64,000 nucleotides of DNA from contig JABIFX010000214.1 of assembly GCA_018650445.1 (NCBI GenBank), positions 2,174-66,173 of the forward strand, given 5' to 3'. This document shows positions 2,615-61,947 of the stretch, piece after piece. Under the pieces are notes generated by a model. That model was not told where the DNA came from, ran no database searches, and saw nothing but the letters and a program-made list of their open reading frames with translations. Within the stretch, counting starts at the first letter, position 1. The number at the start of each line of letters is the position of its first letter. Made by a program: the position numbers and the translations under genes. The DNA comes from Fidelibacterota bacterium (GTDB taxonomy: Bacteria > Fidelibacterota > UBA8477 > JABMPR01).

Positions 2615-3862
2615 ATGAAAATTAAAAATCGTTGGTTTGTTGTTTTGGGGGCAGTTCTCATTCAGTTAGCATTGGGGGCAATTTACGCATGGTCAGTTTT
2701 TACTCCATCACTGGTCGATGCTGGGTGGACAAAAGCAATGACACAGGCTGTTTTTGCTACAGGCTTGTTCTTTTTTGCAGTTGTCATGGTCATCGCAGGT
2801 AGAATTATGCCCAAATTGGGACCACGCAAGGTTGCCATGTCGGGTGGATTTGTTTTGGGTTCTGGATATCTGCTTGCAGGTCTCTTCGGTGGTACCAATT
2901 TTATTGCTCTTCTTATATTTATCGGAATGATAGGTGGAGCTGGAATCGGTCTCGCTTATGTAGTACCAATTGCAGTGGGCATGCGTTGGTTTCCAGATAA
3001 AAAGGGCTTGATTACAGGAATGGCTGTTTCAGGATTTGGCTTTGGCGCAACTCTATGGGTCAAATTAGCTGGATCATGGGGCACACTCATCGCCCTCTAC
3101 GGGTTGAGTACAACCTTCACCGCTCTGGGTGCTATCTTCATGCTCATGATTCTGGTTGGAGGCATCTGGATGATTTTTCCACCAGAAGGTTGGTTACCCG
3201 CCGGATACACCCTACCCGTCGCTTCTGATGGATCAGCCATCGGCGATGAGAATCATTTTAACAGTACTGAAATGTTAAAGACACCACAGTTCCACTTTAT
3301 CTCCATGACTTTCGCCTTTGGTGCCAGCGCAGGGCTCATGAGTATAGGCCTTATGAAATTGTGGCCTATGGTAGCCTTAACTGGCAACGGTATCGATAAA
3401 GTTGCTGCCAGCGCCATTGCTGGTACTGCTATGGCTGTGTTTTTCTCACTTGCCAATGGTCTGGGACGAATTGCCTGGGGTGCCATTAGTGACAAGCTGG
3501 GTCGCAAGCAATCCATTGTTATTATGATGGCCACTCAAGGTATTTTTGTCATTCTTTTCCAATGGATGGCTGGAACACCTGCACTCCTGTATCTGGGTGC
3601 AACTCTGATTGGTTTTAACTTTGGCGGAAATTTTTCGCTCTTCCCAACTATCACAGCTGATACATTTGGTAGTAAGTTTATCGGACAGAATTATGGATGG
3701 GTATTTTTAGCCTATGGTTTTGGTGGAATACTTGGTCCAATCATGGGTGGCTGGCTAGGAGACATGGGTAACTTCCCATTGGCCTTCACCATTTGTGGAA
3801 TACTCTGTTTAGTAGCTGCAGTCATCATGTCACAAATAAAGCCTGCAACAAAAACAGTTTAA
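2615..3862 (+). CDS. MFS transporter, oxalate/formate antiporter (OFA)-like
   Basis: 415 aa with about 12 hydrophobic helices. N-terminus WFVVLGAVLIQLALGAIYAWSVF is typical of the OFA family. GGAGG RBS precedes the ATG. Confidence 0.75.
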   Translation: MKIKNRWFVVLGAVLIQLALGAIYAWSVFTPSLVDAGWTKAMTQAVFATGLFFFAVVMVIAGRIMPKLGPRKVAMSGGFVLGSGYLLAGLFGGTNFIALLIFIGMIGGAGIGLAYVVPIAVGMRWFPDKKGLITGMAVSGFGFGATLWVKLAGSWGTLIALYGLSTTFTALGAIFMLMILVGGIWMIFPPEGWLPAGYTLPVASDGSAIGDENHFNSTEMLKTPQFHFISMTFAFGASAGLMSIGLMKLWPMVALTGNGIDKVAASAIAGTAMAVFFSLANGLGRIAWGAISDKLGRKQSIVIMMATQGIFVILFQWMAGTPALLYLGATLIGFNFGGNFSLFPTITADTFGSKFIGQNYGWVFLAYGFGGILGPIMGGWLGDMGNFPLAFTICGILCLVAAVIMSQIKPATKTV

Positions 3863-3879
3863 ATCCAGCACCAATTAAC

Positions 3880-3919
3880 AAAAAAAAAGAGACAGCCTTT
3901 GCTGTCTCTTTTTTTTTAT
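3880..3919. terminator. Bidirectional rho-independent terminator between the convergent MFS and mtaB genes
   Basis: A9-AGAGACAGC-CTTT-GCTGTCTCT-T10. It is a perfect 9-bp stem with a 4-nt loop, an A-run on one side and a T-run on the other. Confidence 0.85.
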
Positions 3920-3934
3920 TCTTTACCTAGAAGT

Positions 3935-5239
3935 TCAGGTAGATATTGAAGCTAATATTTTTGAGTTTTGTAAACCTGTGAGCTCAACAGCTACAATGCT
4001 ATTCAACAATGCTTCTGAACTACTGCTAATATGGACTTTCAGGTAATTTTCTGTCATTCCAGTCAGAATCCCTTCATTAGAACTCTCAAGCAGGACCTGC
4101 TTTGACTGATTTAGTTGTCGCAGAGCAAAGGTCTGACGCTTTTTCTCTGAAAGCTGTGTCAAGCGCTTGTTTCTATCTTTTCGATCCCTCATGCCTACTT
4201 TACCAGACATTTTGATAGCATCGGTATTTGGTCTCTCTGAATAGGTAAAAACATGGAGATAAGAAATATCTAATGATTCTATTAGGTCGTAGGTCTCCTG
4301 GAATTCAACTGCACCCTCACCTGGGAATCCAACGATAACATCCACACCTATGCCCGCATCAGGCATAACTGATCTCACGGCTTTAATCCGGTCTTTGTAC
4401 AGTTCAACACCATATCTCCGTTTCATAAGACTCAGTATTTTATCTGAGCCAGCCTGTAGCGGAATATGAAAGTGTGGCAGGATGCTTTTTGATTTTGAGA
4501 CAAAGTCGATAATCTCATCCGTAAGTAAGTTTGGTTCTATAGATGAGATTCTGATGCGGTCAATACCTTCTACAACATCCAACCTTTTCAATAGATCGAT
4601 AAGCGCTAAATCCGACCCAAATCGGTAGTCACCGACATTTACGCCTGTGAGAACAATCTCCTTGACGCCTTGAGCCGCAATTTCGTGAGCCTGATTGACC
4701 AGTATCTCAGGATCAATGCTGCGACTTTTCCCCCTGGCCAATGGGATAGTACAATAGGTACATGGGTAATCACATCCATCCTGTATTTTTAAAAATGATC
4801 GAGTTCTATCGCCAACAGAATAGGATGGCGTGCAACCATGCAATTCATCAATCGCTGTGTCTTGAATAATCAGGGGAGTTTTTCGGGGGGAATCAAAATC
4901 AAGATGCTGAAGAAGATTAAATTTTTCCTTCATCCCCAGTACAACATCTACCTTGGATGTTGCGACAATATTTTCTGGGCGCAACTGCGCATAACAGCCA
5001 ATGACAGCTACTTTTGATTCAGGCGCCTGTCTTTTCGCTTTGTTCACAATCTTACGAAACTCGCGGTCAGCATTCTCAGTTACTGAACAGGTATTGATAA
5101 CATAGAGATCAGCCGCTTGATTAAAGTCGATCTTTTCATATCCAGCTGCTGTGAATTGCCGACCAATGGTTGATGTTTCGGCGTAATTGAGCTTACATCC
5201 GAGTGTATGAAAGGCGACCTTTTTTGCTCTACTATTCAT
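3935..5239 (-). CDS. mtaB: Radical-SAM methylthiotransferase, MtaB-like (MiaB family)
   Basis: N-terminal UPF0004 pattern VAFHTLGCKLNYAETS. Radical-SAM motif CDYPCTYC (Cx3Cx2C). C-terminal TRAM-like region. Confidence 0.8.
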   Translation of the reverse strand: MNSRAKKVAFHTLGCKLNYAETSTIGRQFTAAGYEKIDFNQAADLYVINTCSVTENADREFRKIVNKAKRQAPESKVAVIGCYAQLRPENIVATSKVDVVLGMKEKFNLLQHLDFDSPRKTPLIIQDTAIDELHGCTPSYSVGDRTRSFLKIQDGCDYPCTYCTIPLARGKSRSIDPEILVNQAHEIAAQGVKEIVLTGVNVGDYRFGSDLALIDLLKRLDVVEGIDRIRISSIEPNLLTDEIIDFVSKSKSILPHFHIPLQAGSDKILSLMKRRYGVELYKDRIKAVRSVMPDAGIGVDVIVGFPGEGAVEFQETYDLIESLDISYLHVFTYSERPNTDAIKMSGKVGMRDRKDRNKRLTQLSEKKRQTFALRQLNQSKQVLLESSNEGILTGMTENYLKVHISSSSEALLNSIVAVELTGLQNSKILASIST

Positions 5240-11582: not shown

Positions 11583-11867
11583 CTATTTATCCTTGGTGCT
11601 GGAGGCTTTGGTAGCTTTGGATTCAGATGATGTTGAAGTAGCAGATTTCTTTTTGGATTTTACGGTTTCAGTTTTCTCTGCTTTTCCTTTGGCATAGTCG
11701 GTGATGTAAAATCCAGACCCTTTAAAAATAAGTCCACTACCACCACTAATGATTCTCCTGACACTTCCTTTGCAATGGACACACTTCTCCAAATGAGAAT
11801 CAGACATTTTCTGGAAAGCATCGAAATGATTACCACAACTCAGGCATTCATATTCATATGTGGGCAT
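11583..11867 (-). CDS. FmdB-family zinc-ribbon protein with S/T/K-rich tail
   Basis: MPTYEYECLSCGNHFDAFQKMSD...CVHCKG shows the two CxxC pairs of the FmdB/CxxC_CxxC_SSSS family. Confidence 0.8.
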   Translation of the reverse strand: MPTYEYECLSCGNHFDAFQKMSDSHLEKCVHCKGSVRRIISGGSGLIFKGSGFYITDYAKGKAEKTETVKSKKKSATSTSSESKATKASSTKDK

Positions 11868-29000: not shown

Positions 29001-29195
29001 GGAGGTAATATCGTCATAAATGTCATCTGCCACAAACAAAGCCTCATTGGCCGTCCACTCAGTCCCCTGATGATAGTGAACGATGAAGTGTTTACCCTCA
29101 ATGGTCTTCCATTCCAATTCAGGATGGTTGAATCCCTGGGCTATGAGAACACTTCCGGTGCTGATTAGAAATATTATGGTTTTCAGGGTGTTCAT
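26070..29195 (-). CDS. 1041-aa outer-membrane protein: HExxH metallopeptidase-like domain + TolB-like (PD40) beta-propeller + Omp85-like C-terminal barrel
   Basis: Signal peptide followed by VITHEFTHIIS (intact HExxH). PD40-type repeats DWSPDAAHLVYA, DWSPQGDKIAFV and RWSPRGDQVIFD. The C-terminus has GGGMPGLKGYPFYSMKGSRRIISTTTMRFPLF...GFHGQLGGVW and ends KVLFGFD, as in Omp85/BamA barrels. Confidence 0.65.
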   Translation of the reverse strand: MNTLKTIIFLISTGSVLIAQGFNHPELEWKTIEGKHFIVHYHQGTEWTANEALFVADDIYDDITSLYQYAPEEKTQLIIRDTDDYANGGAYYFDNKIEIWAMPLDYNLRGSHYWLRDVITHEFTHIISLRASRKMHGNVPAAYLQVISYEPERREDVLYGYPNGIASYPIPSVSVPMWWAEGIAQFQSDTSRWDWWDSIRDMILRDRIKYDNVLTLNEMDAFGKVGIGNESVYDHGFGLVNYIGHEYGQDIIQRITDRISGPLNYGFYKALEAETGLPANRLWSNWVTSLADRHTLSYQEGEPISPIHFVQREGDANHYPRFNSTGDKMAYISSAGETYLSRTALFIKDSSDKAEKLLPGVEGFDWSPDAAHLVYARKEYYDGGTPETRTLNHSSHGLNEFVSTNSVSTCEKCQLVISGSRFSDLFIIHPDSLKEERQITFGERVKNPDWSPQGDKIAFVNLRDGTNNLCFAFPEYPDSIQQLTYFEPGTQVYGPRWSPRGDQVIFDYTSGSNRDIAIYDLANQTVQPLLTAVWDERNPVFKDDSTIYYSDDRTGIFNIYEHNLRDTSNYRVTNVIGGAFQAEWHNNELYYSLYDSLGFNIAVLDESELIHVETGPVSASLDRIIEPTWSRHEHDLIAEEYTFRAGPLFLLPRLQIEMDQSKNDILVKPGLYFFSDEIISNYSMIGGFGLAPNLDMDLFLSAKYKGFLPTLTFEFYQMVRHTNEELLYYSGVYPAESDLTFSLSQGVLSADIRVPPIHALKIDISASNYRTAIGLHTVGPANLPAGGISYDYFKGWDWGIKWDMSRINIRQERGINPSGYKASLSIRDNHHNFLDHYGYDESTERWGNIFGNYRYTKLNASAFYGYLLPMPGNIVLSNTTELNLIDNNAIDDFFWEFGGGMPGLKGYPFYSMKGSRRIISTTTMRFPLFRDNYSRVAHLTVRDLYIGFHGQLGGVWSADPEFVTPNDFSAWMTHEKDQISIVRDVGVDLRLSLNSYYAFPTAFEFGAYYGLDDVDSETSSGDVIRYGKEWRYYWKVLFGFD

Positions 29196-31999
29196 CGAAT
29201 AACGGCGATCTTGATTATCTCTGATGAACTGCCGGCAACAATTTGTGCGAGGTAAACACCATTAGACACGTCTGAGGCATCCCAGAGCCATTCATTAAAG
29301 CTATTCGGTTGAAGTACATCCTGTTCAATATGGGCAACTTGTGCCCCATTCATGGAGAATATCTCAATGCTCCAGGTCTCCACGTCCCCGAGCCAGGCAC
29401 GGATGGTGGTAGTGCTGCCCTTTATGGGATTCGGATAATTATAAACAGATTTGGATTGGATTGCGGGCAGTGGCACAGGGGTAACAACGGGTGTCAATAC
29501 GACTCGATCACCTGCTCTATTACCCTGTGGATCGGACCAGAAGGCCATGGTCTCAGTTGTTTGATCATATTCAAAGTAAAGCAGCTCCTGGCCACTGAGA
29601 ATCAGACTCAGGCCATTTGAAGCGCTGAGGTAGTTATCAATACTGGTGGATACTTCTGGCAAGACACCTCTATCCAACAAACCTCCGTTATAGTCGAATA
29701 TAGAATACCCATTGGTGTGCCGTAAAAAGATACTGGGCTGACCATCTATGGTTGAACCAACAATTGGATTGCCAACATAGGGTTCAACGTGGAAAGGATT
29801 ACCATTATATGCAATCCCGGTTTGATTGATAATCTTAATTGAATTTTCATAAAGTAGAGCGATCTCATAATATCCATCCAAATCTGCATCGAAAGGAATA
29901 ATGTGCAGTGGTTTATCACTGCTGATGTAGTCAACTTCATCAGAAGGAAGATGAGATATCATTAAAGCATTTTCACCATTGGACCATGAGATTACATCCA
30001 CTTCTTCAGGTAAGCCTGTAAAGACGCCAGCAGGATCACGGTATGGTGTAACCCCAACAGGAGTTGGGTCCCCAGTAATACTTGAGTAGAAGGGCTGAAT
30101 GCCCGAAGTTGTCTGAAATCTGGCTACAGGTGGTCCAGGAAGTTGTTCACTTATGAATTGTCCCTGCTGTTCGAACCATTTCACGAGATAGTAGGACCCA
30201 TTGTCCTCAGAAAAATATGAAAGGGTTAGTAGTGGATTATTTCCGCCAATTATCTCAAAAGGGTTGCTTTTGGTCGGGTGAGAATGGAAGACACCACTCT
30301 CAATATCAATAAATCTGGATCCAATATCCATATTTGGAAATACCCATGGATACCTGAATTGAAAAGTACTGTCACTGCTTGTGTGAAGGATATCAGCTGG
30401 CGTCACAATGAGATTTGGAGTATGGGATAGACGCCCTTCAGCAAAGACCGTCTCAATGATCTGAGATGAGTCGGTATTGAAGGCCCAGAGTGAGTTTGAG
30501 GCTGCACCCCACCCAATATAGCTTGAGATAAAATCCGTATCAGCCAATCTATCCGATGAGACTGTAAAGCTCATAGTTGTACCATTTTTAGAAATATTCT
30601 CAATATTAAGGTGACTGGGAGCTCCTGAATTGGAAGTGGTTGCTGGGAAAGTCGCTGAATTGAAGCTGAGAAGACTATCTCCGATCACATCTTCGTAACG
30701 GTTGATATGAAACCAGCCTTCATTACCAGCAAACCAAGGATCAAACCACCACCCAGTTTCCAGATAGCCAGCAAAAAGCAACTGCGTGTCATGTCCCATA
30801 TCCTGGGCACCATCAGCTTCGACGAAATCCACCAGCTGTATTGGTCCCCCATTTGGATTGTCTGCTGTGAATCTTGCATTCTCATCGATGTGCCAGATAT
30901 TGAGTCCATTACCTGGTAACCCAGCATGCTGCTCGTCAACATTAAGAACAACTCCAGCGGTGCTTAAAACTACAGATACCGTATCAAACCCCGCCTCATC
31001 GATCCAAAGGGGCATGCTGCTAGGATGCAGTATATTTCTCTGGCGATTCTCTATGAGATAATATTCAGTGACACTGATTGAAATTTTAACAGGAGGATCA
31101 TCGACATGAATCGAGACCGAATCCCCTATGTGCATCTCGTTGGCTGTTACCCAGCCCTTTTCAATGCGTGTATAAGGATCTGGATAGGCCGGGACAACGC
31201 CGTGAAAATTATTTGAACCCTGGTCCATGAGGGCAAAACCACCCACAAGGGACACACCTGTCTCGGTATTATAGAGTGGTGGTAGATCAAGATGAAAGCC
31301 CAGCATAAGCGCCAGTGTCCCATTTAGTCCTACCTGATAAAAACAGGGATCCTCCGCATCCTCAAAGAGGCTACGAGTTTCTTTATACTGAAGAAAGTTT
31401 TGTGATTCCGGGATAATAATTAGATCAGTAAGATTCCCTTCATCAGTTACAAGATTTCGATATTCTGCAAAATCCGTTTGGGAAAGATATGCTGACGGAA
31501 TGTTTCCTGGTGTGGGATCAAGGGCAAATGCGAAATCCCCACCCATGCCGGCATGTGCAATAATGATAGTGGTATATTCATCAAAATTGATGTCAGGATC
31601 TGCAAGCACGATAACATCTTCACTCAACTCAAAAAGTTTCTCGGTTTCATCATATTCTTGTAAATAGGGATGATAATAGAGCATGTCATGAGGCAATTGA
31701 TAGACATCATCATCGTTTAGAGGAAATACATCTGAATCAGCAAAATTCACATGAACTGCACCGCTACTCACCCGTTGCCAGTAGTTGTCCATTGCTGTGA
31801 GGTGATCCTGAAAATAGGACCGACCATGAGGAGGTGGATCAAGAGACCAATCACTACAATCGAGATCAACCGTATCCTCCAGGACAAAACTGCCATCTCC
31901 AGTTGTTGCCGGTGAGGAGTCTGGTTGAAAAGCGACTCGCAGAACAGCGACCTTTAACTCTTGACCTGAAAGGGTGAGGACTGACAGAATAGTCAGCAA
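29192..31999 (-). CDS. T9SS-sorted M6 (immune inhibitor A)-like protein with degenerate zinc site
   Basis: IIAHAGMGGDFA parallels M6 HAGxGQE. GTLALMLGFHLDLPPLYNT parallels GVFAHEYGHDLGLPDEYDT with both His and the Glu of HExxH replaced. The C-terminal 85 aa (YNYPNPIKGSTTTIRAW...NGVYLAQIV...IKIAVIR) is a type-A T9SS sorting domain. The TTG start gives a short uncharged signal peptide, so the start is uncertain. Confidence 0.6.
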   Translation of the reverse strand: MLTILSVLTLSGQELKVAVLRVAFQPDSSPATTGDGSFVLEDTVDLDCSDWSLDPPPHGRSYFQDHLTAMDNYWQRVSSGAVHVNFADSDVFPLNDDDVYQLPHDMLYYHPYLQEYDETEKLFELSEDVIVLADPDINFDEYTTIIIAHAGMGGDFAFALDPTPGNIPSAYLSQTDFAEYRNLVTDEGNLTDLIIIPESQNFLQYKETRSLFEDAEDPCFYQVGLNGTLALMLGFHLDLPPLYNTETGVSLVGGFALMDQGSNNFHGVVPAYPDPYTRIEKGWVTANEMHIGDSVSIHVDDPPVKISISVTEYYLIENRQRNILHPSSMPLWIDEAGFDTVSVVLSTAGVVLNVDEQHAGLPGNGLNIWHIDENARFTADNPNGGPIQLVDFVEADGAQDMGHDTQLLFAGYLETGWWFDPWFAGNEGWFHINRYEDVIGDSLLSFNSATFPATTSNSGAPSHLNIENISKNGTTMSFTVSSDRLADTDFISSYIGWGAASNSLWAFNTDSSQIIETVFAEGRLSHTPNLIVTPADILHTSSDSTFQFRYPWVFPNMDIGSRFIDIESGVFHSHPTKSNPFEIIGGNNPLLTLSYFSEDNGSYYLVKWFEQQGQFISEQLPGPPVARFQTTSGIQPFYSSITGDPTPVGVTPYRDPAGVFTGLPEEVDVISWSNGENALMISHLPSDEVDYISSDKPLHIIPFDADLDGYYEIALLYENSIKIINQTGIAYNGNPFHVEPYVGNPIVGSTIDGQPSIFLRHTNGYSIFDYNGGLLDRGVLPEVSTSIDNYLSASNGLSLILSGQELLYFEYDQTTETMAFWSDPQGNRAGDRVVLTPVVTPVPLPAIQSKSVYNYPNPIKGSTTTIRAWLGDVETWSIEIFSMNGAQVAHIEQDVLQPNSFNEWLWDASDVSNGVYLAQIVAGSSSEIIKIAVIR

Positions 32000-32087
32000 T
32001 ATTCTTACTATGAATTGATTGATATTATCCCCGCTAGTTATTGAGGGTAAAAATTAAAGATCGACGATCAGATTAATCCGATCAACC

Positions 32088-33353
32088 TTAAAATTTTAAC
32101 ATCAGCGAGAATCGCATGGTGTTGTTCAGAGGGTGTGTTTCCTCTGCCACAGTATATCCGAAATCAAAACCGTAGTTTCCATAACGCAAACCAGCCCCTA
32201 CCGTTGGTGTGGTAATCTTGCCTTCAGAATCGTAGTAGTAACCACCACGGATAGCAAACATCTCATTGTACCAGTATTCGAGACCAACACTATGGATAAG
32301 CGATTTAAATTCATCAGATGCACTTCTATCATCGCTATTGCCTACTTCGAGTACTCCCTTTGAATTATAGAGTCCTCCAGCAGTAGCTGAAGTATCAGCA
32401 CCGTAGCCACCAATAATTCTATCACTATCTAAATCACGGTCACCACCAAGATACCAATCATCCAGGAATGAGGTAAAAAGACCTTTCCACCATGAATCAG
32501 TGTGGGCAAGCTCATTCTGCCCATCCTTATTGAAATTACCTGATTGATTCTCAGAGCCATCATCATTATAACCACCAATTATAAGATCACCATCCCAATC
32601 CATGGAGGCATACTCTCCCACCAGCAATTTATTTACATCATATACAACATTTAGTCGATTAAATTTTGATTCATATACACGCATATTGAAGCCAAGTTTC
32701 AAATTCGTCGGTAAAGGATCGGCTTGCTCTTCATCATTGAAAATGACTTTGGGACCCAAGTTTGCCACCATAGCACCAATATCCAGTTTGCCCCCCAAAT
32801 AGCCTTTACTCAGATACCCAACATCAAAACCAAAATTAGTTGCTGTTCCCTTCGTATCTTCAGTACCAACCTTTTTATCAGTTAGATGCTGATATAATAT
32901 TTTAAAGTTAAAGCCAACACTTGAATTCTCAGAAATCATGGTGGCATAACTTATTGCGCCAGAAGAAAAGTAGGTCAGGAAGGTTCCAAGTGAGGTTCCG
33001 TTTGCATCAGTATACTGCTGTTCACCAGCATTCAGGTAGATGATATGTCCTCCAAAAACGCCGAGACCTTCCACTGGTGCGCGACCGGCCAGAAAGTCAT
33101 AGTACATGTCATCTACAAGCCCGGGAAGCCAATTTACGTGCATTCCTGAAACTTCATAACCACTTTGGAATCCTAGTCCTGCTGGATTCCAATAGGTTGC
33201 GTAGGAGTCATCTGCAAGAGCAACTTGTGCTTCACCCATACCACCAGCCCGTGCACCGGGTGCAATCAGCAGAAATAAGGCACTCTGTGAGAATGCGACA
33301 GATAAAAGCATCAAACTTCCGATGGTGAGATTAATAATTTTATTCATTTTCAT
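32088..33353 (-). CDS. porV: PorV/PorQ-family (FadL-like) outer-membrane barrel, PorV candidate
   Basis: Signal peptide MKMNKIINLTIGSLMLLSVAFSQ, with GAGGAG RBS 9 nt upstream of ATG 33353. LLIAPGARAGGMGEAQVALADDSYATYWNPAGL is the family N-terminal motif. The protein ends in F. Confidence 0.6.
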   Translation of the reverse strand: MKMNKIINLTIGSLMLLSVAFSQSALFLLIAPGARAGGMGEAQVALADDSYATYWNPAGLGFQSGYEVSGMHVNWLPGLVDDMYYDFLAGRAPVEGLGVFGGHIIYLNAGEQQYTDANGTSLGTFLTYFSSGAISYATMISENSSVGFNFKILYQHLTDKKVGTEDTKGTATNFGFDVGYLSKGYLGGKLDIGAMVANLGPKVIFNDEEQADPLPTNLKLGFNMRVYESKFNRLNVVYDVNKLLVGEYASMDWDGDLIIGGYNDDGSENQSGNFNKDGQNELAHTDSWWKGLFTSFLDDWYLGGDRDLDSDRIIGGYGADTSATAGGLYNSKGVLEVGNSDDRSASDEFKSLIHSVGLEYWYNEMFAIRGGYYYDSEGKITTPTVGAGLRYGNYGFDFGYTVAEETHPLNNTMRFSLMLKF

Positions 33354-33374
33354 TGTAACTAACTCCTCATTCAT

Positions 33375-33406
33375 AAAAAAACCGAATATTACTAATAACA
33401 TTCGGT
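33375..33406 (-). terminator. Strong rho-independent terminator inside the porV leader
   Basis: The minus-strand RNA reads ACCGAAUGUUA-UUAG-UAAUAUUCGGU-UUUUUU. It forms an 11-bp stem (one G:U that would be an A:C mismatch on the other strand) with a 4-nt loop. The T-run ends about 22 nt before the porV ATG. Confidence 0.7.
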
Positions 33407-51713: not shown

Positions 51714-52391
51714 TCATTTCCCCTGCCTGTTTCTATCAATTTCTTGAACTGACCCCTGTACCAAGGGTACAAATCTTACGGGATCTTTTCTTTTCCTCAA
51801 AATATCGCTATCTTTTTTTGTGCAAATCCATACATATTGCTCTGCTTTTCCCTCTGGTGCAATCAGAATCCCACCCTCTTTCAAACTATCAAAGATATGT
51901 TCGGGTATCCTTGGAGGGCTGGCCCATAGAATGATACGATCATAAACTATTCCCTCCTGTAAATGTTCCCAGGCACTACCATGTATCAGATCAATATTGG
52001 GTAGTTCGAGCTGCTTAATAATAGCCTTCGAATCCTCAAGTAATTCTCCATATACTTCCATTGCAGTAACACGATGGCATAATTTTGACATAATTGCCGT
52101 GGCATACCCGCTACCACTCCCTATTTCAAGGACATGATGATTGGGCCGAAGGTCAAGATAGCTCAGCATGAGTGCAACAACATATGGCTGACTGATGGTC
52201 TGTCCTGATTTTATTGGGAGCGGTTGATCCCCATATGCATCACCTGGTAAAATGTGAGGAACAAACAGATGTCTAGGAATGTCTTTGAAAGCGTTCAGAA
52301 TAGCGGGATGAAGAATACCCCTTTTCATGAGCTGATCTGATACCATTTCGTGGAGGAGATCCTGTATGTCTCCATTCTCTGTATTTCCCAT
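51714..52391 (-). CDS. pcm: Protein-L-isoaspartate O-methyltransferase
   Basis: IPRHLFVP, TISQPYVVALM and VLEIGSGSGYATA motifs. The start is ambiguous between ATG 52391 and TTG 52418. Confidence 0.85.
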   Translation of the reverse strand: MGNTENGDIQDLLHEMVSDQLMKRGILHPAILNAFKDIPRHLFVPHILPGDAYGDQPLPIKSGQTISQPYVVALMLSYLDLRPNHHVLEIGSGSGYATAIMSKLCHRVTAMEVYGELLEDSKAIIKQLELPNIDLIHGSAWEHLQEGIVYDRIILWASPPRIPEHIFDSLKEGGILIAPEGKAEQYVWICTKKDSDILRKRKDPVRFVPLVQGSVQEIDRNRQGK

Positions 52392-52537
52392 AGTGGGTAA
52401 TTTAACCGTTTTCCCCAACCAAGCATTAACTTATCGAAAAACATTAATTTCTGGTCCGTGTTCAATTATATTTTGAGATATTTCCAACGCCAGGGACAAA
52501 GCAGGTTAGTACCATTTAATATGGGGAGATTTTACAC

Positions 52538-53005: not shown

Positions 53006-53078
53006 GCGAGAGTAGCTCAGTTGGTAGAGCTCCACGTTGCCAACGTGGTTGTCGCCGGTTCGAGTCCGGTCTCTCGCT
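53006..53078 (+). tRNA. tRNA-Gly (anticodon GCC)
   Basis: Cloverleaf read by eye. Acceptor GCGAGAG/CTCTCGC. D-arm GCTC-AGTTGGTA-GAGC. Anticodon arm CCACG-TTGCCAA-CGTGG. T-arm GCCGG-TTCGAGT-CCGGT. Discriminator is T. CCA is not encoded. Confidence 0.9.
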
Positions 53079-53081
53079 CAC

Positions 53082-53118
53082 AAAAAAAAGAGGCTGAAAT
53101 ATTCAGCCTCTTTTTTTT
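53082..53118. terminator. Bidirectional rho-independent terminator (tRNA-Gly on plus, lipoprotein gene on minus)
   Basis: A8-GAGGCTGAA-ATA-TTCAGCCTC-T8. Confidence 0.85.
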
Positions 53119-53137
53119 GGTCAATTTTAATTACTTG

Positions 53138-54286
53138 TTAGTGCCTTTTGACTTTATCCTTTTTAGTTTTCTCTTTTTCTTTAGGCATGTAATCTTTTAC
53201 TATGAGCGCAACCTCAGGAGTATCCTCGATTTTTTCATTTAATGCAATCGGTTCAAGATAATAGCTATTCTTCAGTTTCTTGATTAGATCTATATTGGTT
53301 TTACGCTCATCGCGAAGTCGGGTGATTAGCTTTAATCTATTTTCATCTTTGGCGAAATGTTCTTCCAAGGTCATACCCTCTTCAAGCCCTTTTGACATGG
53401 CCTTGAGGCGATTATCTGTAAATTTGATGCGCGTGTATTGTGAGCTCACATTCTTCATTTGACTTACATCATCAACATTCCTGATCTTCAATACACCGGC
53501 ATACTTACCTTGTTTACCGATCCGAATGATGGTAGTACCATCCTGCTGTTTAGGAATTCGTTGAAGGGATCCAGACTTAGACCGGATGAGAAAATCGATG
53601 CCTTTAACCTTTGCAATCAAAGCCGTTTCTAATTTATCATCCGCATTGGCCATTAAAAAAACCAGATCAACTTTGTCCTTAATTTCATCAATTGCTTTTT
53701 GAGCAGCTTCAATTGGATCTGAAAAAGCAAATTCCTGTACTCGTTTATCCCCCTTCGTGACCCCGACAAATCCAAGAGTCTGGTCATGGGTTTTAACAAT
53801 TGTATAGGGTTCGAACAGAAATTTATCCGTGCTGGCATCTTTTGTATTTGCTGATATAAAGGGAAAATTGGCTGTATTCTTCATTTCCAATATAAAGTCA
53901 AGACCTGCAGCGAGATCATTGGTACCCACATTCATGACCTGACATTCCATCACATTGTAGGCTGCAATGATTGCCTGGGCTACCTCTTTTAAGTGAACAC
54001 GCTGTGCTTCTGCAATATATGGGTATTTGAACAATGCATCTCCAGCATCAACAAGGTAAGTTGCCTCTTTTTCTGCAAGTCCCTTAATTATCGTATGCTT
54101 CCTGGCAAGACCGCCAAGTGGATTAGATCGTCAGCCGCAGGGACCTACTTCCCCATCATTGCTGGCTGCAACCATGAGGGTGAACTCATTTGGATTATAT
54201 TTGGGAGTTGTCTCACTTTTACATCCCACTGCCACCAGGACAATGAGCAGGAGCATCAATCCTGAACGTTTAAGAAGTAACTTCAT
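53138..54286 (-). CDS. Lipoprotein, degenerate 5'-nucleotidase/metallophosphoesterase-like; one in-frame TGA (54131-54133) = candidate selenocysteine codon, otherwise a pseudogene
   Basis: ATG 54286 lies 13 nt after the pepP stop. It gives MKLLLKRSGLMLLLIVLVAVGC (lipobox) and continues to ...FTLMVAASNDGEVGPCG-TGA-RSNPLGGLARKHTIIKGLAEKEATYLVDAGDALFKYPY... The reading frame then runs unchanged into track ORF 53138..54034, whose start is an internal TTG. GGLAR and DAGD parallel the CD73/UshA N-domain (GGVARL, LLLDAGD). Confidence 0.55.
54101..54118 (-). promoter_or_regulatory. Hairpin 12 nt downstream of the in-frame UGA (candidate minimal SECIS)
   Basis: The mRNA reads UGA-CGAUCUAAUCCA-CUUGGC-GGUCUU-GCCAGG. 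It forms a 6-bp stem (one G:U) with a GGU-containing 6-nt loop. This is modest support only. Confidence 0.3.
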
Positions 54287-54299
54287 TATTTTTCCTGAT

Positions 54300-55607
54300 T
54301 CAACCTTTATTCATAAGTGCTTCAATTTCAGATATCTCTTTAGGAACAGCAGCTGTGAGGTTTTTGTTCCCCGATTCAGTAATGACAATATCGTCCTCTA
54401 TTCGTATCCCAATACCGCGGAATTTTTCAGGCGCTTTGGATTTTGAATTGACATAAATACCAGGTTCCACGGTAAATGTCATACCGGGTTTAAGCACGAT
54501 GGATTCACCATCAGCCATATAGTTACCCATATCATGTACATCCAATCCCAACCAATGACCGGTTTTATGCATGAAATAGTCTTGATAACTCTCATTTTGA
54601 ATAACTTCGTCAGCAGTGCCCTTTAACAATCCAATCTCTATCATCCCCTCAACAAGAAGCCTTAAATCGATATCATGGAGTTCCTGAAAGGTGACCCCTG
54701 GTTTTGAAGCTTCGATGACTGCCTTCTGGGCTTTAAGAACTACTTCGTAGATGGCCTTCTGGGATTCAGAAAAATGGCCATTTGCAGGAAAGGTTCTGGT
54801 TATGTCTGCAGCATACATATCGTATTCGGCTGCTGCATCAATGAGTATCATGTCACCATCAACTATTTGGTCACGATTTTTGATGTAATGCAGGACGGTG
54901 GCATTGTCCCCAGCCCCGACGATTGATGTATAGGCAGGACCTGAACTCCCTTCATGGACAAAATGACTCTCAAGCACAGCCTGGAGTTGATACTCATACA
55001 TACCTGGTGAACAGGCCTGCATGGCTTTTGAGTGAGCGTCAGCAGAGATATCTGCAGCTTTTTGCATAAGCTCCAACTCATGCTCATCCTTGATTAGTCG
55101 CATACTATGAGTGAGAGAACCCACAGATTCGAGACCCACTGGTCCTCCCCCGGTCCTTTGCACTTCTTTGCGCACCTGCCCAACATGGTCAAGCATTTTG
55201 TACTGGTGAACCTTATCATGATTCAGGTTAGTATATACTTTTGACGACGTCTTCATGGCAGCTAGTGCGGCTGCTTGGAATTCGGCAATATCCAGTGCCT
55301 GATCAGCGTTATACTTTGCAACCGTATCTTCAAAACTGAGTCTCCAACCGGTCCATACTTCCTTTTTAGGGTCCTGGGGAAGCACAAATAGAGTGAACGG
55401 ATTTTCCTTATTGTTGGGATCGATAATGCAAGCAGATCCAGGTTCAGTATATCCCGTGAGATAAAAGAAGTCCGAATCCTGTCTGTAGGGGTATTCGGTA
55501 TCATTTGTACGAATTTGCTCAGGTGCCCCTTTCAGAATAGCAACACCCTTCCCCATAAGATTTATCAAGTTTTGTCGGCGTTTATTATAAATATTGCTGT
55601 TAACCAT
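54300..55607 (-). CDS. pepP: Xaa-Pro aminopeptidase (M24B)
   Basis: N-terminal creatinase-like domain plus the M24 metal ligands (DAAAEYDMYAADITRT, HKTGHWLGLDVHD, VEPGIY, IRIEDD). Confidence 0.9.
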   Translation of the reverse strand: MVNSNIYNKRRQNLINLMGKGVAILKGAPEQIRTNDTEYPYRQDSDFFYLTGYTEPGSACIIDPNNKENPFTLFVLPQDPKKEVWTGWRLSFEDTVAKYNADQALDIAEFQAAALAAMKTSSKVYTNLNHDKVHQYKMLDHVGQVRKEVQRTGGGPVGLESVGSLTHSMRLIKDEHELELMQKAADISADAHSKAMQACSPGMYEYQLQAVLESHFVHEGSSGPAYTSIVGAGDNATVLHYIKNRDQIVDGDMILIDAAAEYDMYAADITRTFPANGHFSESQKAIYEVVLKAQKAVIEASKPGVTFQELHDIDLRLLVEGMIEIGLLKGTADEVIQNESYQDYFMHKTGHWLGLDVHDMGNYMADGESIVLKPGMTFTVEPGIYVNSKSKAPEKFRGIGIRIEDDIVITESGNKNLTAAVPKEISEIEALMNKG

Positions 55608-60726: not shown

Positions 60727-61947
60727 TTATTTGAGATACAACATCTTGATCGTTTGACTATACTGTCCGGCTTGGAGTCGAGTAAAATAGACACCCGTAG
60801 TCACTTGATTCCCGGATTGATCCACCCCACTCCAGTTGATCTCATAGTGACCTGCAAGCTGCTCTTCATTCTCAAGAGTAACGACTTCTCGACCGGTCAC
60901 ATCATAAATAGTGATATTTACATTTGAGATTTCTGGCAAATCGTAGTTGATTGTGGTAGTGGGGTTGAAGGGGTTGGGGTGGTTCTCATACAAGCTGGGT
61001 TCCGCTATTCCTGAAAAATCATGGTCATCAATTTGTACCGCTCCAGTGGGATGAGGATTTGCCTGAAAGAATTTCATGATCTCATCATTCGCAGAAATAT
61101 CCCGATTGGATAATCCAGGTGTTGTCACACCAGGCCATCGGTGTTTTCCATTATTTATCCTATAAAACAATACTTCTGTTTCTGCCTCACAATTCTGGTA
61201 TGTAATCAAAGTTACGGTACTACTATCTTCAGTGTTGATATTGGGTAGATCCGTGACAAGCGAATCTGATATGCAGCCATTGGCATGAGCAAAGAAGGAT
61301 GGAGTAGCGGCAATGGGTGGGTAATTCTGGTCTCCAGCTTCTGGAAACCAGGGGTCATCTGTCCCAAATATCACGAGGGCTGAGATCGGTCTTGAGGGCT
61401 GCAATGAATCCAGATGATGATAGTATAGGCCACCTGACACACCTGCAACAGAAGCTACCTTATCTGCGAGTACACAGCCGAGATAGAAAACCATTTCTGC
61501 TCCAGTTGAAAATCCAGTCACATGGATTCTGCTCGAGTCCACATTGTAATTGGATTTGATATCATTGATCAATTCTTCCGTAAAGCTGATATCATTATGA
61601 CCAGCAGAATATGCACCTGGGACATTCCAACCGTAATCTGAATCCCCCCAAATTAGATCTGTAACAACGAGTCCCTGTGGATAAACAACTAAAAACTCTG
61701 CCGTATCTGCATCAACATTCATAACAGTATAGTTCATATGTAGATCTGCAGTGTGAGTGTACCCATGAAAATTAATGATAACTGGCCATGCATTTTGACC
61801 AGTATAAGTAGCTGGGGTATAGGTTTTATAAGTTCTCGTTGTATCAAAATGTGTGAATGAATGCGTGAAAACGGTTCCAGTTTGACAGAAGCATATCTTT
61901 GTGATTATAGAAATCACTATAGATATATTAATAATAATCCTGATCAT
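60727..61947 (-). CDS. Esterase (PHB-depolymerase/feruloyl-esterase-like alpha/beta hydrolase) with T9SS C-terminal sorting domain
   Basis: TRTYKTYTPATYTGQNAWPVIINFHGY and the nucleophile elbow GFSTGAEM. The C-terminus YENHPNPFNPTTTINYDLPEISNVNITIYDVTGREVVTL...GVYFTRLQAGQYSQTIKMLYLK is a type-A T9SS CTD. Confidence 0.8.
   Translation of the reverse strand: MIRIIINISIVISIITKICFCQTGTVFTHSFTHFDTTRTYKTYTPATYTGQNAWPVIINFHGYTHTADLHMNYTVMNVDADTAEFLVVYPQGLVVTDLIWGDSDYGWNVPGAYSAGHNDISFTEELINDIKSNYNVDSSRIHVTGFSTGAEMVFYLGCVLADKVASVAGVSGGLYYHHLDSLQPSRPISALVIFGTDDPWFPEAGDQNYPPIAATPSFFAHANGCISDSLVTDLPNINTEDSSTVTLITYQNCEAETEVLFYRINNGKHRWPGVTTPGLSNRDISANDEIMKFFQANPHPTGAVQIDDHDFSGIAEPSLYENHPNPFNPTTTINYDLPEISNVNITIYDVTGREVVTLENEEQLAGHYEINWSGVDQSGNQVTTGVYFTRLQAGQYSQTIKMLYLK

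Follow-up and report, generated by a model that had tools for sequence, protein, structure and literature searches.

The subject of this analysis is a gene on the minus strand of a 64-kb window (the whole stretch of Fidelibacterota contig JABIFX010000214.1 that was analysed), lying directly downstream of pepP and interrupted at codon 52 by a single in-frame TGA; we conclude that it is very probably a genuine selenoprotein gene, encoding one intact UshA-like C-x-U lipoprotein in which the TGA stands for selenocysteine (Sec). The frame opens at an ATG (54286–54284, minus strand) located 13 nucleotides (nt) beyond the TGA stop of pepP (54302–54300) and preceded by an AGGA 6 nt to its 5′ side. It runs through 51 sense codons, the last residues being ...NDGEVGPCG, to the TGA at 54133–54131, and then continues to the TAA at 53140–53138 with no shift and no second internal stop. 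A listing of the open reading frames (ORFs) splits this gene into a 51-amino-acid ORF (54131..54286) and a 298-amino-acid ORF with a TTG start (53138..54034). An initial annotation of the window had described the ATG, the 51 codons, the TGA, the continuing frame and the 298-amino-acid TTG ORF, and every one of these coordinates was reproduced.

The same annotation had recognized a lipoprotein signal at the N-terminus, and the lipobox pattern is indeed present. It is made up of an N-terminal stretch with positive charge, a core of hydrophobic residues and [AGS]-C, all of which are retained in the Marinimicrobia orthologues. This call is a pattern match made by reading the sequence, not the output of a predictor. 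Relatives of the P0078 and P0086 type carry a plain signal peptide without the Cys. The gene and pepP are probably co-transcribed, and the layout of pepP followed by the gene is repeated in the loci of the window-type clade (L031–L037). A convergent tRNA-Gly(GCC) gene lies beyond the 3′ end, at 53006–53079 on the plus strand. The features of the locus are collected in Table 1.

Table 1. Coordinates of the predicted selenoprotein gene, its elements and its flanking features in the window.
Feature	Position	Strand	Remarks
UshA-like C-G-Sec lipoprotein coding sequence (predicted)	53138..54286	minus	382 codons plus TAA (53138–53140); Sec = codon 52
Lipoprotein signal peptide (pattern match)	54221..54286	minus	MKLLLKRSGLMLLLIVLVAVG followed by C; lipobox Cys22 at 54221–54223
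C50-G51-U52 motif, TGC GGC TGA	54131..54139	minus	Sec codon TGA at 54131–54133
Candidate selenocysteine insertion sequence (SECIS) hairpin, CUUGGC/GGUCUU/GCCAGG	54101..54118	minus	starts 12 nt after UGA; based on folding, covariation and synonymous change
Hairpin core GGCGGUCU, nt 19–26	54108..54115	minus	invariant in short Sec forms, absent in Cys forms
UshA/5′-nucleotidase-like metallophosphatase-fold domain	53450..54181	minus	about residues 36–279; profile and Foldseek
C-terminal, mostly helical region	53141..53449	minus	about residues 280–382; corresponds to the NF041198 linker, up to position 387
pepP (Xaa-Pro aminopeptidase; AMP_N and Peptidase_M24)	54300..55607	minus	upstream gene, ends in TGA
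Terminator-like hairpin	53081..53119	.	T-runs on both sides; between the stop of the gene and tRNA-Gly(GCC)

One coding frame across a conserved TGA

The read-through protein was searched with Cys written at codon 52. Its best NCBIfam match was NF041198 ('UshA_like_PCGU, UshA-like (seleno)protein'; E 4.6e-67, 226.8 bits), with window residues 13–379 aligned on model positions 2–387 of 519, and the same family scored highest for all 20 family members tested. That the read-through product should resemble a curated selenoprotein family above all others agrees with the initial annotation, which had proposed the gene as a candidate selenoprotein. Weaker NCBIfam matches were obtained with SoxB, UshA, CpdB and UshA-like family 2, the UshA, CpdB and SoxB models matching at 1e-13 to 1e-16. 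In Pfam the read-through protein had no match, and neither Metallophos nor 5_nucleotid_C (PF02872) was found.

A genome scan, covering one genome per GTDB species with a close alignment as query, gave 26 loci, of which 18 bear the title Candidatus (Neo)marinimicrobiota or Marinimicrobia. At column 52, TGA is present in 24 of these species-level loci and TGC in one (L025), the remaining locus being a C-terminal fragment. The 24 TGA orthologues, which share 26–88% protein identity with the window, all keep their full length, and the extra stops or frameshifts in relatives that the initial annotation had named as a mark of decay occur in none of them. The TGA lies in a common context (N-x-G-E-x-x-P-C-G-TGA-x-x-x-P-x-G-G-L-A-R) and is found in 25 of 25 Sec-type sequences when the window is counted with the genomes. 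Cys forms (L025, P0088, P0090 and P0091) use TGC or TGT at this column, the distant homologues P0088, P0090 and P0091 reading D-C-G-C or G-C-D-C. The column on which the initial annotation had wished to compare homologues is thus TGA in the orthologues and Cys in the other homologues. In the 20-sequence family alignment both C50 and residue 52 (U or C) are invariant, as are G58, G59, D80, G82, A103, G121, D124, S145, N147, G175 and G260.

Selection was measured among the window and 18 orthologues as nonsynonymous (pN) and synonymous (pS) change per segment. The 20 codons 5′ of the TGA gave a pS of 0.64 and a pN of 0.087 (pN/pS 0.14), and codons +12 to +33 a pS of 0.68 and a pN of 0.18; from these values on either side of the TGA it follows that both flanks evolve as coding sequence in one frame. 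Downstream of the TGA, no in-frame ATG, GTG or TTG occurs before the TTG at 54034, which is codon 85 and lies beyond the invariant G58, G59, D80 and G82. These four residues are thus encoded ahead of any possible restart, and only read-through can produce them.

Contigs of the same or a near-identical sequence, drawn from no fewer than five separate assemblies (L031–L037), show the identical CCCTGCGGCTGA context, the same DNA being present on contig JABHVG010000212.1 (GCA_018658395.1) and on several ENA contigs, and this identity in independent assemblies excludes a sequencing error. The same PCG-TGA context occurs on further metagenome contigs as well. The recurrence of this TGA arrangement is far beyond chance.

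When 1.84 billion cluster representatives were searched exhaustively, 5,346 relatives emerged, with 1,315 representatives at E <= 1e-10. Of the best 148, Cys occupies the Sec column in 33 and 'W' in 15; the remaining 100 or so either lack their N-terminal part or could not be classified, and many of them begin right after that column. In every record inspected, the gene is either split (a 51–52-amino-acid ORF plus a truncated 'hypothetical protein') or, where the contig is a short metagenomic one, given a Trp at the Sec codon. The C-terminal ORF of the window itself has an exact match in a Candidatus Marinimicrobia metagenome-assembled genome (MAG), where it is labelled a 'hypothetical protein'. 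Three 'W' entries were checked (P0053, L027:1103-2236; P0078, L028:75-1244; and P0086, L029:78-1256): they read 'PCGW' in the records and TGA in the DNA, and are not reproduced when the DNA is translated with table 11. Most of the entries P0053–P0087 presumably carry Trp for TGA too, the likely cause being gene calling on short contigs under a model in which TGA is Trp. A further case is P0092 (L042, ~2750-3996, plus strand), a long form bearing a cytochrome c554, which is annotated from an internal GTG with a signal peptide and ...GYTEPCG-TGA-ADTGVQLGG lying upstream in frame; read in this way it appears to be a mis-annotated selenoprotein too.

A hairpin downstream of the TGA

The initial annotation had pointed to a small hairpin with GGU in its loop shortly after the TGA, and in its conservation, covariation and fdhF-like spacing this element behaves like a SECIS. 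Numbered from the U of UGA, it consists of the pairs C16-G33, U17·G32, U18-A31, G19-C30, G20-C29 and C21-G28, optionally extended by G22·U27, around an apical loop of G23, U24, C25 and U26, and it is the minimum-free-energy structure of the region (-8.9 kcal/mol). Synonymous change collapses over codons +4 to +11 (pS 0.05 and pN 0.012, against a pS of 0.64–0.68 in the flanks), coinciding exactly with the predicted hairpin. Within it, a single codon serves for Gly+6 (GGC, 25 of 25 sequences), Gly+7 (GGT, 25 of 25) and Ala+9 (GCC, 23 of 23), and AGG serves for Arg+10 in 23 of 25, whereas several codons are in use at each upstream Gly position. The core was found in all 28 short Sec forms (22 of them distinct), even at 26–30% protein identity, and in none of the four Cys-form genes at the equivalent Gly-Gly-Leu/Ile codons. 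Its absence from the Cys forms indicates that the constraint belongs to the TGA forms, not to the protein.

Base pairing is maintained as well. The 6-bp helix is 90.9% paired across the 22 distinct sequences, against 17–52% when the 3′ partner is slid, with compensatory changes at 16:33 (C-G to A-U or U-A) and 18:31 (U-A to G-C), and its covariation score was reached by none of 500 shuffles. In L024, L026 and L027 the stem is rebuilt one register over with other base pairs and the GGUCU loop is kept, and in the long form L042 a different 9-bp stem on the Gly-Gly codons again presents a GGU loop. Bacterial SECIS elements have been defined by a loop of 3–9 nt, a stem of 4–16 bp, a G in the first two loop positions, a distance of 16–37 nt from the UGA and a minimum free energy of at most -7.5 kcal/mol (PMC13188914). 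The window hairpin falls within these bounds, with a stem of 6–7 bp, a loop of 4–6 nt beginning with G and then G or U, and a spacing of 18–19 nt.

The closest known counterpart is the SECIS of E. coli fdhF, whose sequence (UGA CAC GGC CCA UCG GUU GCA GGU CUG) was verified in 5,413 E. coli genomes. Compared with it, the window element (UGA CGA UCU AAU CCA CUU GGC GGU CUU) has identical U17, U18 and G19 and identical G22, G23, U24, C25 and U26 at the same distances from the UGA, both being short hairpins inside coding sequence. Of the shared nucleotides, G23 and U24, along with the bulged U17, are the ones that SelB contacts in the fdhF element. The two differ in stem sequence, in the state of U17 (in a U·G wobble in the window, bulged in fdhF) and in the closure of the loop (C21-G28, with or without G22·U27, in the window and A21-U26 in fdhF); in addition, no long lower stem is evident in the window.

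Proposed selenocysteine decoding and its alternatives

We propose that ribosomes arriving at UGA-52 would not terminate, the mRNA just downstream folding into the hairpin (54118–54101), whose apical loop would present G23 and U24 at the distance from the UGA seen in fdhF; SelB-GTP carrying Sec-tRNA(Sec) would then bind the hairpin and insert selenocysteine. Decoding in the host organism is accordingly presumed to be SelB-dependent. TGA otherwise functions as a normal stop. Of 49 long ORFs in the window, 22 end in it, pepP included, and it is the commonest ordinary stop; glgA, ispG and comM end in it, as the initial annotation had stated. In L019, L021 and L024 the orthologue even uses TGA twice, internally at the Sec column and as terminator. 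A global recoding of TGA (code 4 or 25) was rejected on this stop-codon usage.

Several observations weigh against decoding as Sec, or against what is built upon it. The 64-kb window and the readable 10-kb extensions contained none of selA, selB, selC and selD, and three SAR406 single-cell genomes have been recorded as 'orphan SelD', with no SelA or SelB and no selenoprotein genes (PMC5029168). The hairpin has an ordinary stability (z = -1.0; 37 of 200 shuffles fold equally well) and, stability alone not being significant, its energy is not used as evidence here; Rfam returned no SECIS family for it at gathering or permissive thresholds, the sole match being to a long non-coding RNA at a meaningless E of 3.1. 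The window protein, at 226.8 bits, falls short of the curated NF041198 cut-off of 275 bits. Finally, the Sec loop is the least reliable part of the AlphaFold (AF2) structure of homologue P0086 (predicted local distance difference test, pLDDT, below 50 over P0086 residues 36–46), which weakens the argument about function.

With regard to the machinery, ARAGORN detected only tRNA-Gly, tRNA-Ala and tRNA-Cys, and no tRNA-Sec, in the window and the 26 loci, and only housekeeping genes were seen in the neighbourhoods examined, which covered the window and 10 kb past its left end. A protein search with E. coli SelA was uninformative on Marinimicrobia, its best 120 matches all being enterobacterial. 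In the literature on selenocysteine or selenoproteins in Marinimicrobia, SAR406 or Marinisomatota, only the orphan-SelD table was found. The SAR406 single-cell assemblies are probably incomplete, and the clade-wide conservation of a selenoprotein gene with its SECIS speaks for the presence of the Sec trait. An all-frame scan of the window for other TGA-interrupted ORFs gave no convincing second candidate. Separately, the window encodes (11583-11867, minus strand) a 94-amino-acid FmdB-family zinc-ribbon protein (PF09723) with CxxC...CxxC in an all-Cys form; FmdB has been listed as a UxxU selenoprotein family (PMC13188914).

Among the alternatives, the one that fares best is that the UGA is read as Trp, Cys or Gly through near-cognate or suppressor decoding, or without SelB, in an orphan-SelD lineage. 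It draws on the orphan-SelD record of the SAR406 single-cell genomes and on the fact that the Sec machinery of the host is something we infer, yet it is very unlikely: TGA is the commonest stop and terminates the very same gene in three orthologues, the column alternates with Cys only, which is the classic Sec/Cys signature, and the hairpin, constrained at synonymous sites in TGA forms only, resembles in both sequence and spacing the loop of fdhF to which SelB binds. Moreover SelD, the selenium donor, has been reported in SAR406, and the orphan-SelD genomes are probably incomplete.

Still less probable is that the locus makes two products, a lipopeptide of 51 residues terminated by the TGA and, from an internal start, a C-terminal protein that stays in the cytoplasm. 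Gene callers yield precisely such a split, and UGA termination competes with Sec insertion to some extent in selenoprotein genes. However, the first available start (codon 85) follows the Gly-Gly pair (58–59) and D80-A-G, motifs under purifying selection; the called starts vary among orthologues, homology to a single UshA-type domain is continuous across the TGA, and the downstream part would be left without strand 1 of the fold and without a signal peptide. Internal re-initiation was rejected because conserved motifs precede any start codon. That the gene is a decaying pseudogene or an assembly or sequencing error, the TGA being a true stop or a miscall with no full-length protein, would suit the public annotation (a truncated 298-amino-acid 'hypothetical protein' and an unannotated 51-amino-acid ORF) and is scarcely credible in view of a TGA kept in 24 species-level genomes without extra stops or frameshifts, strong purifying selection on either side and the identical base in independent assemblies; pseudogene status was rejected on TGA conservation and selection. 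A single Sec-containing protein is the reading retained below.

Family, fold and possible role of the protein

The protein belongs to a family that has long been catalogued. The 'COG0737, UshA-like' family with a CxU motif was among the twenty major selenoprotein families in the GOS (Global Ocean Sampling) data, in which it counted 76 sequences with Sec, from 20 samples, and 92 homologues with Cys (Zhang & Gladyshev 2008, PMC2398784), and it was relisted in two reviews (PMC9312934 and PMC13188914), the latter (2026) citing NF041198. The initial annotation had held a C-x-U motif in this fold to be unusual, a view that the 2008 catalogue contradicts (PMC2398784). Because the C-x-Sec UshA-like family has been known since then, the present finding is not a discovery; it is a correct re-annotation of a gene whose selenoprotein family is itself already known. 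The window gene combines the features that define the UshA-like CxU family in the literature, namely COG0737 homology, a TGA in C-x-U, aligned Cys homologues and a SECIS, and it lies outside the NF041198 equivalog as delimited by the 275-bit cut-off and the C-terminal multihaem region (~388–519).

This difference reflects two architectures. Other short forms scored 151–219 bits on NF041198, under the cut-off, and among the window protein and eight scanned members only L025 passed it (543 amino acids, Cys form; 291.9). L025 has four CxxCH motifs at its C-terminus, and the cytochrome c554-like part of P0092 corresponds to NF041198 positions 349–517. In the window protein CxxCH is absent and the match stops at position 387, without the last ~130 positions. 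As the cytochrome parts map to the C-terminal positions of the model, NF041198 describes the cytochrome-fused architecture. The window gene represents the short, lipid-anchored form, which is typical of Marinimicrobia and which a pipeline relying on the NF041198 cut-off would leave unnamed.

Profile and structural comparisons agree with the UshA/CD73-type metallophosphatase fold that the initial annotation had recognized by eye. The domain carries the motifs DAGD (54038–54049) and GTND (residues 121–124), and the family profile matches PDB entries 3ivd, 3gve, 1ush (1.3e-22) and 2z1a, CD73 and SoxB, and also YfkN and CpdB. The AF2 model of homologue P0086 (mean confidence: pLDDT 85; predicted template modelling score 0.83) retrieved UshA (4e-17), YfkN, CpdB and CD73 with Foldseek. 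The replacement of the metal ligands, likewise noted earlier, is confirmed: the UshA ligand or catalytic positions D41, H43, D84, N116 and H117 are S42, D44, D83, T122 and N123 in the window and, via the 3ivd alignment, H217 and H252 are N214 and K237. Only D83 is retained (N in some members), and across the family all seven columns vary. The initial annotation had also aligned the Cys-bearing loop with that of CD73; the fold assignment stands, and the residue-exact match to the CD73 cysteines does not, since P-C-G-[C/U]-x proves to be a 5-residue insertion directly after motif I in a profile alignment to E. coli UshA. The nucleotide-binding C-terminal domain of true 5′-nucleotidases is absent and a helical region stands in its place, long C-terminal helices being predicted in the P0086 model. 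With the dimetal ligands not conserved and this domain missing, it is very unlikely that the protein is a nucleotidase.

Gene context differs between clades. Throughout the clade of the window, pepP on one side and a convergent tRNA-Gly(GCC) on the other flank the gene, which is set amid housekeeping genes (ispG, comM and mreBCD), and this neighbourhood offered no functional hint. In L024 (4218-5161), L026 (4052-4997) and L027 (2236-3203), genes for a rhodanese and a MauE/DoxX protein directly follow the selenoprotein gene, with which they apparently form an operon; this arrangement is absent from the clade of the window. One Cys form has a sulfatase gene next downstream. A tRNA-Gly(GCC) adjoins the selenoprotein gene in every locus with sufficient flank (mostly L001–L026), in convergent orientation in the window-type clade and co-directional in L019–L022, L024 and L026.

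The protein would, on this reading, be lipid-anchored and exported, keeping the N-terminal fold of 5′-nucleotidases with a Cys-Gly-Sec/Cys loop beside the former metal site, and might serve as a Cys/Sec redox or chalcogen-transfer centre outside the cytoplasm, not in phosphoester hydrolysis. Judged from sequence and context, an extracytoplasmic Cys/Sec redox or sulfur-transfer role seems the most likely one, as suggested by the rhodanese/DoxX and sulfatase contexts, the fused tetrahaem cytochrome, the relationship to SoxB and the export signal. Whether the C-x-U motif forms a redox-active centre is about evenly balanced, and a role for sulfur specifically is less probable than that. The fused tetrahaem cytochrome and the rhodanese/MauE/DoxX operon point to partners in electron or sulfur transfer. 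It is possible, though rather doubtful, that the short form constitutes a distinct subfamily in which the two-metal centre has been swapped for a Cys-Gly-Sec dyad engaged in extracytoplasmic redox chemistry or in sulfur or selenium transfer; its partners may then be the rhodanese and MauE/DoxX proteins (L024, L026 and L027) or the fused tetrahaem cytochrome. If so, this would represent a new enzyme chemistry in abundant ocean bacteria and would make Marinimicrobia/SAR406 a Sec-using phylum, not an 'orphan SelD' one.

Beyond this, the gene matters for annotation, as the NF041198 cut-off misses the entire short form and mis-annotation in the public records is systematic. It is conserved across a clade of Marinimicrobia (SAR406/Neomarinimicrobiota), abundant uncultured bacteria of the dark or low-oxygen ocean, and as a conserved SECIS-bearing gene it implies that SAR406 uses selenocysteine, where earlier work recorded only an 'orphan' SelD. 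The residual biochemical interest lies in a hydrolase fold without canonical dimetal ligands whose former metal site is flanked by a Cys-Gly-Sec loop; the degeneracy of that site, the long-form cytochrome and the short-form rhodanese/DoxX operon are leads that narrow the search for a substrate.

Some further features were seen in passing. The window encodes a PorV homologue and two large Por_Secre_tail proteins (29192-33401 and 60727-61947, both minus strand); these genes, related to type IX secretion, are consistent with an organism of the FCB (Fibrobacteres–Chlorobi–Bacteroidetes) group. PCMT-like and PspC ORFs (~51714-52418, minus strand) overlap by 59 nt, and a PspC-domain gene is 68 amino acids long in the NCBI MAG (L036:12755-12961) and 210 on otherwise identical ENA contigs (L035:12329-12961), which may be a start-site or assembly discrepancy. 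In the Marinimicrobia MAG locus L022 (1688-2893, minus strand), a 401-amino-acid protein combines two LIM domains (2e-18) with a DA1-like peptidase (2.5e-10), an architecture best known from eukaryotes. The translations of L026 (NZHL01000011.1) contain many X, owing to ambiguous bases in the deposited MAG, some of them within the selenoprotein gene.

Of the known systems, the NF041198/CxU family is the nearest. Like the window protein, its members carry P-C-G-U followed by P-x-GG-L-A-R in a degenerate UshA-type domain, and they coexist as Sec and Cys forms and are abundant in marine metagenomes; the window protein differs in being a lipoprotein, in lacking the cytochrome tail and in its housekeeping neighbourhood (pepP and tRNA-Gly). 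NF049981 (UshA-like selenoprotein family 2; E 1.6e-12) is a distant relative that has the same fold and a selenoprotein form, but with CxxU in place of CxU, a score of 47 bits against a cut-off of 140 and a model of only 262 positions. E. coli UshA, human CD73, YfkN and CpdB have in common with the window protein the calcineurin-like N-terminal fold, motifs of the (D)AGD and SANI types and an exported location. In contrast to them, the window protein has the ligands D41, H43, N116, H117, H217 and H252 replaced or variable (D84 persisting in part of the family), an extra P-C-G-U-x insertion and no C-terminal substrate-binding domain. The SoxB thiosulfohydrolase (TIGR04486; PDB 2wdc), finally, belongs to the same superfamily, is periplasmic and acts on a sulfur substrate, and its model matches all 20 family members (best E 8.9e-24; window 8.8e-16); with 57 bits against a cut-off of 550 the window protein remains far from it, and SoxB is without the CxU loop and keeps a di-manganese site.

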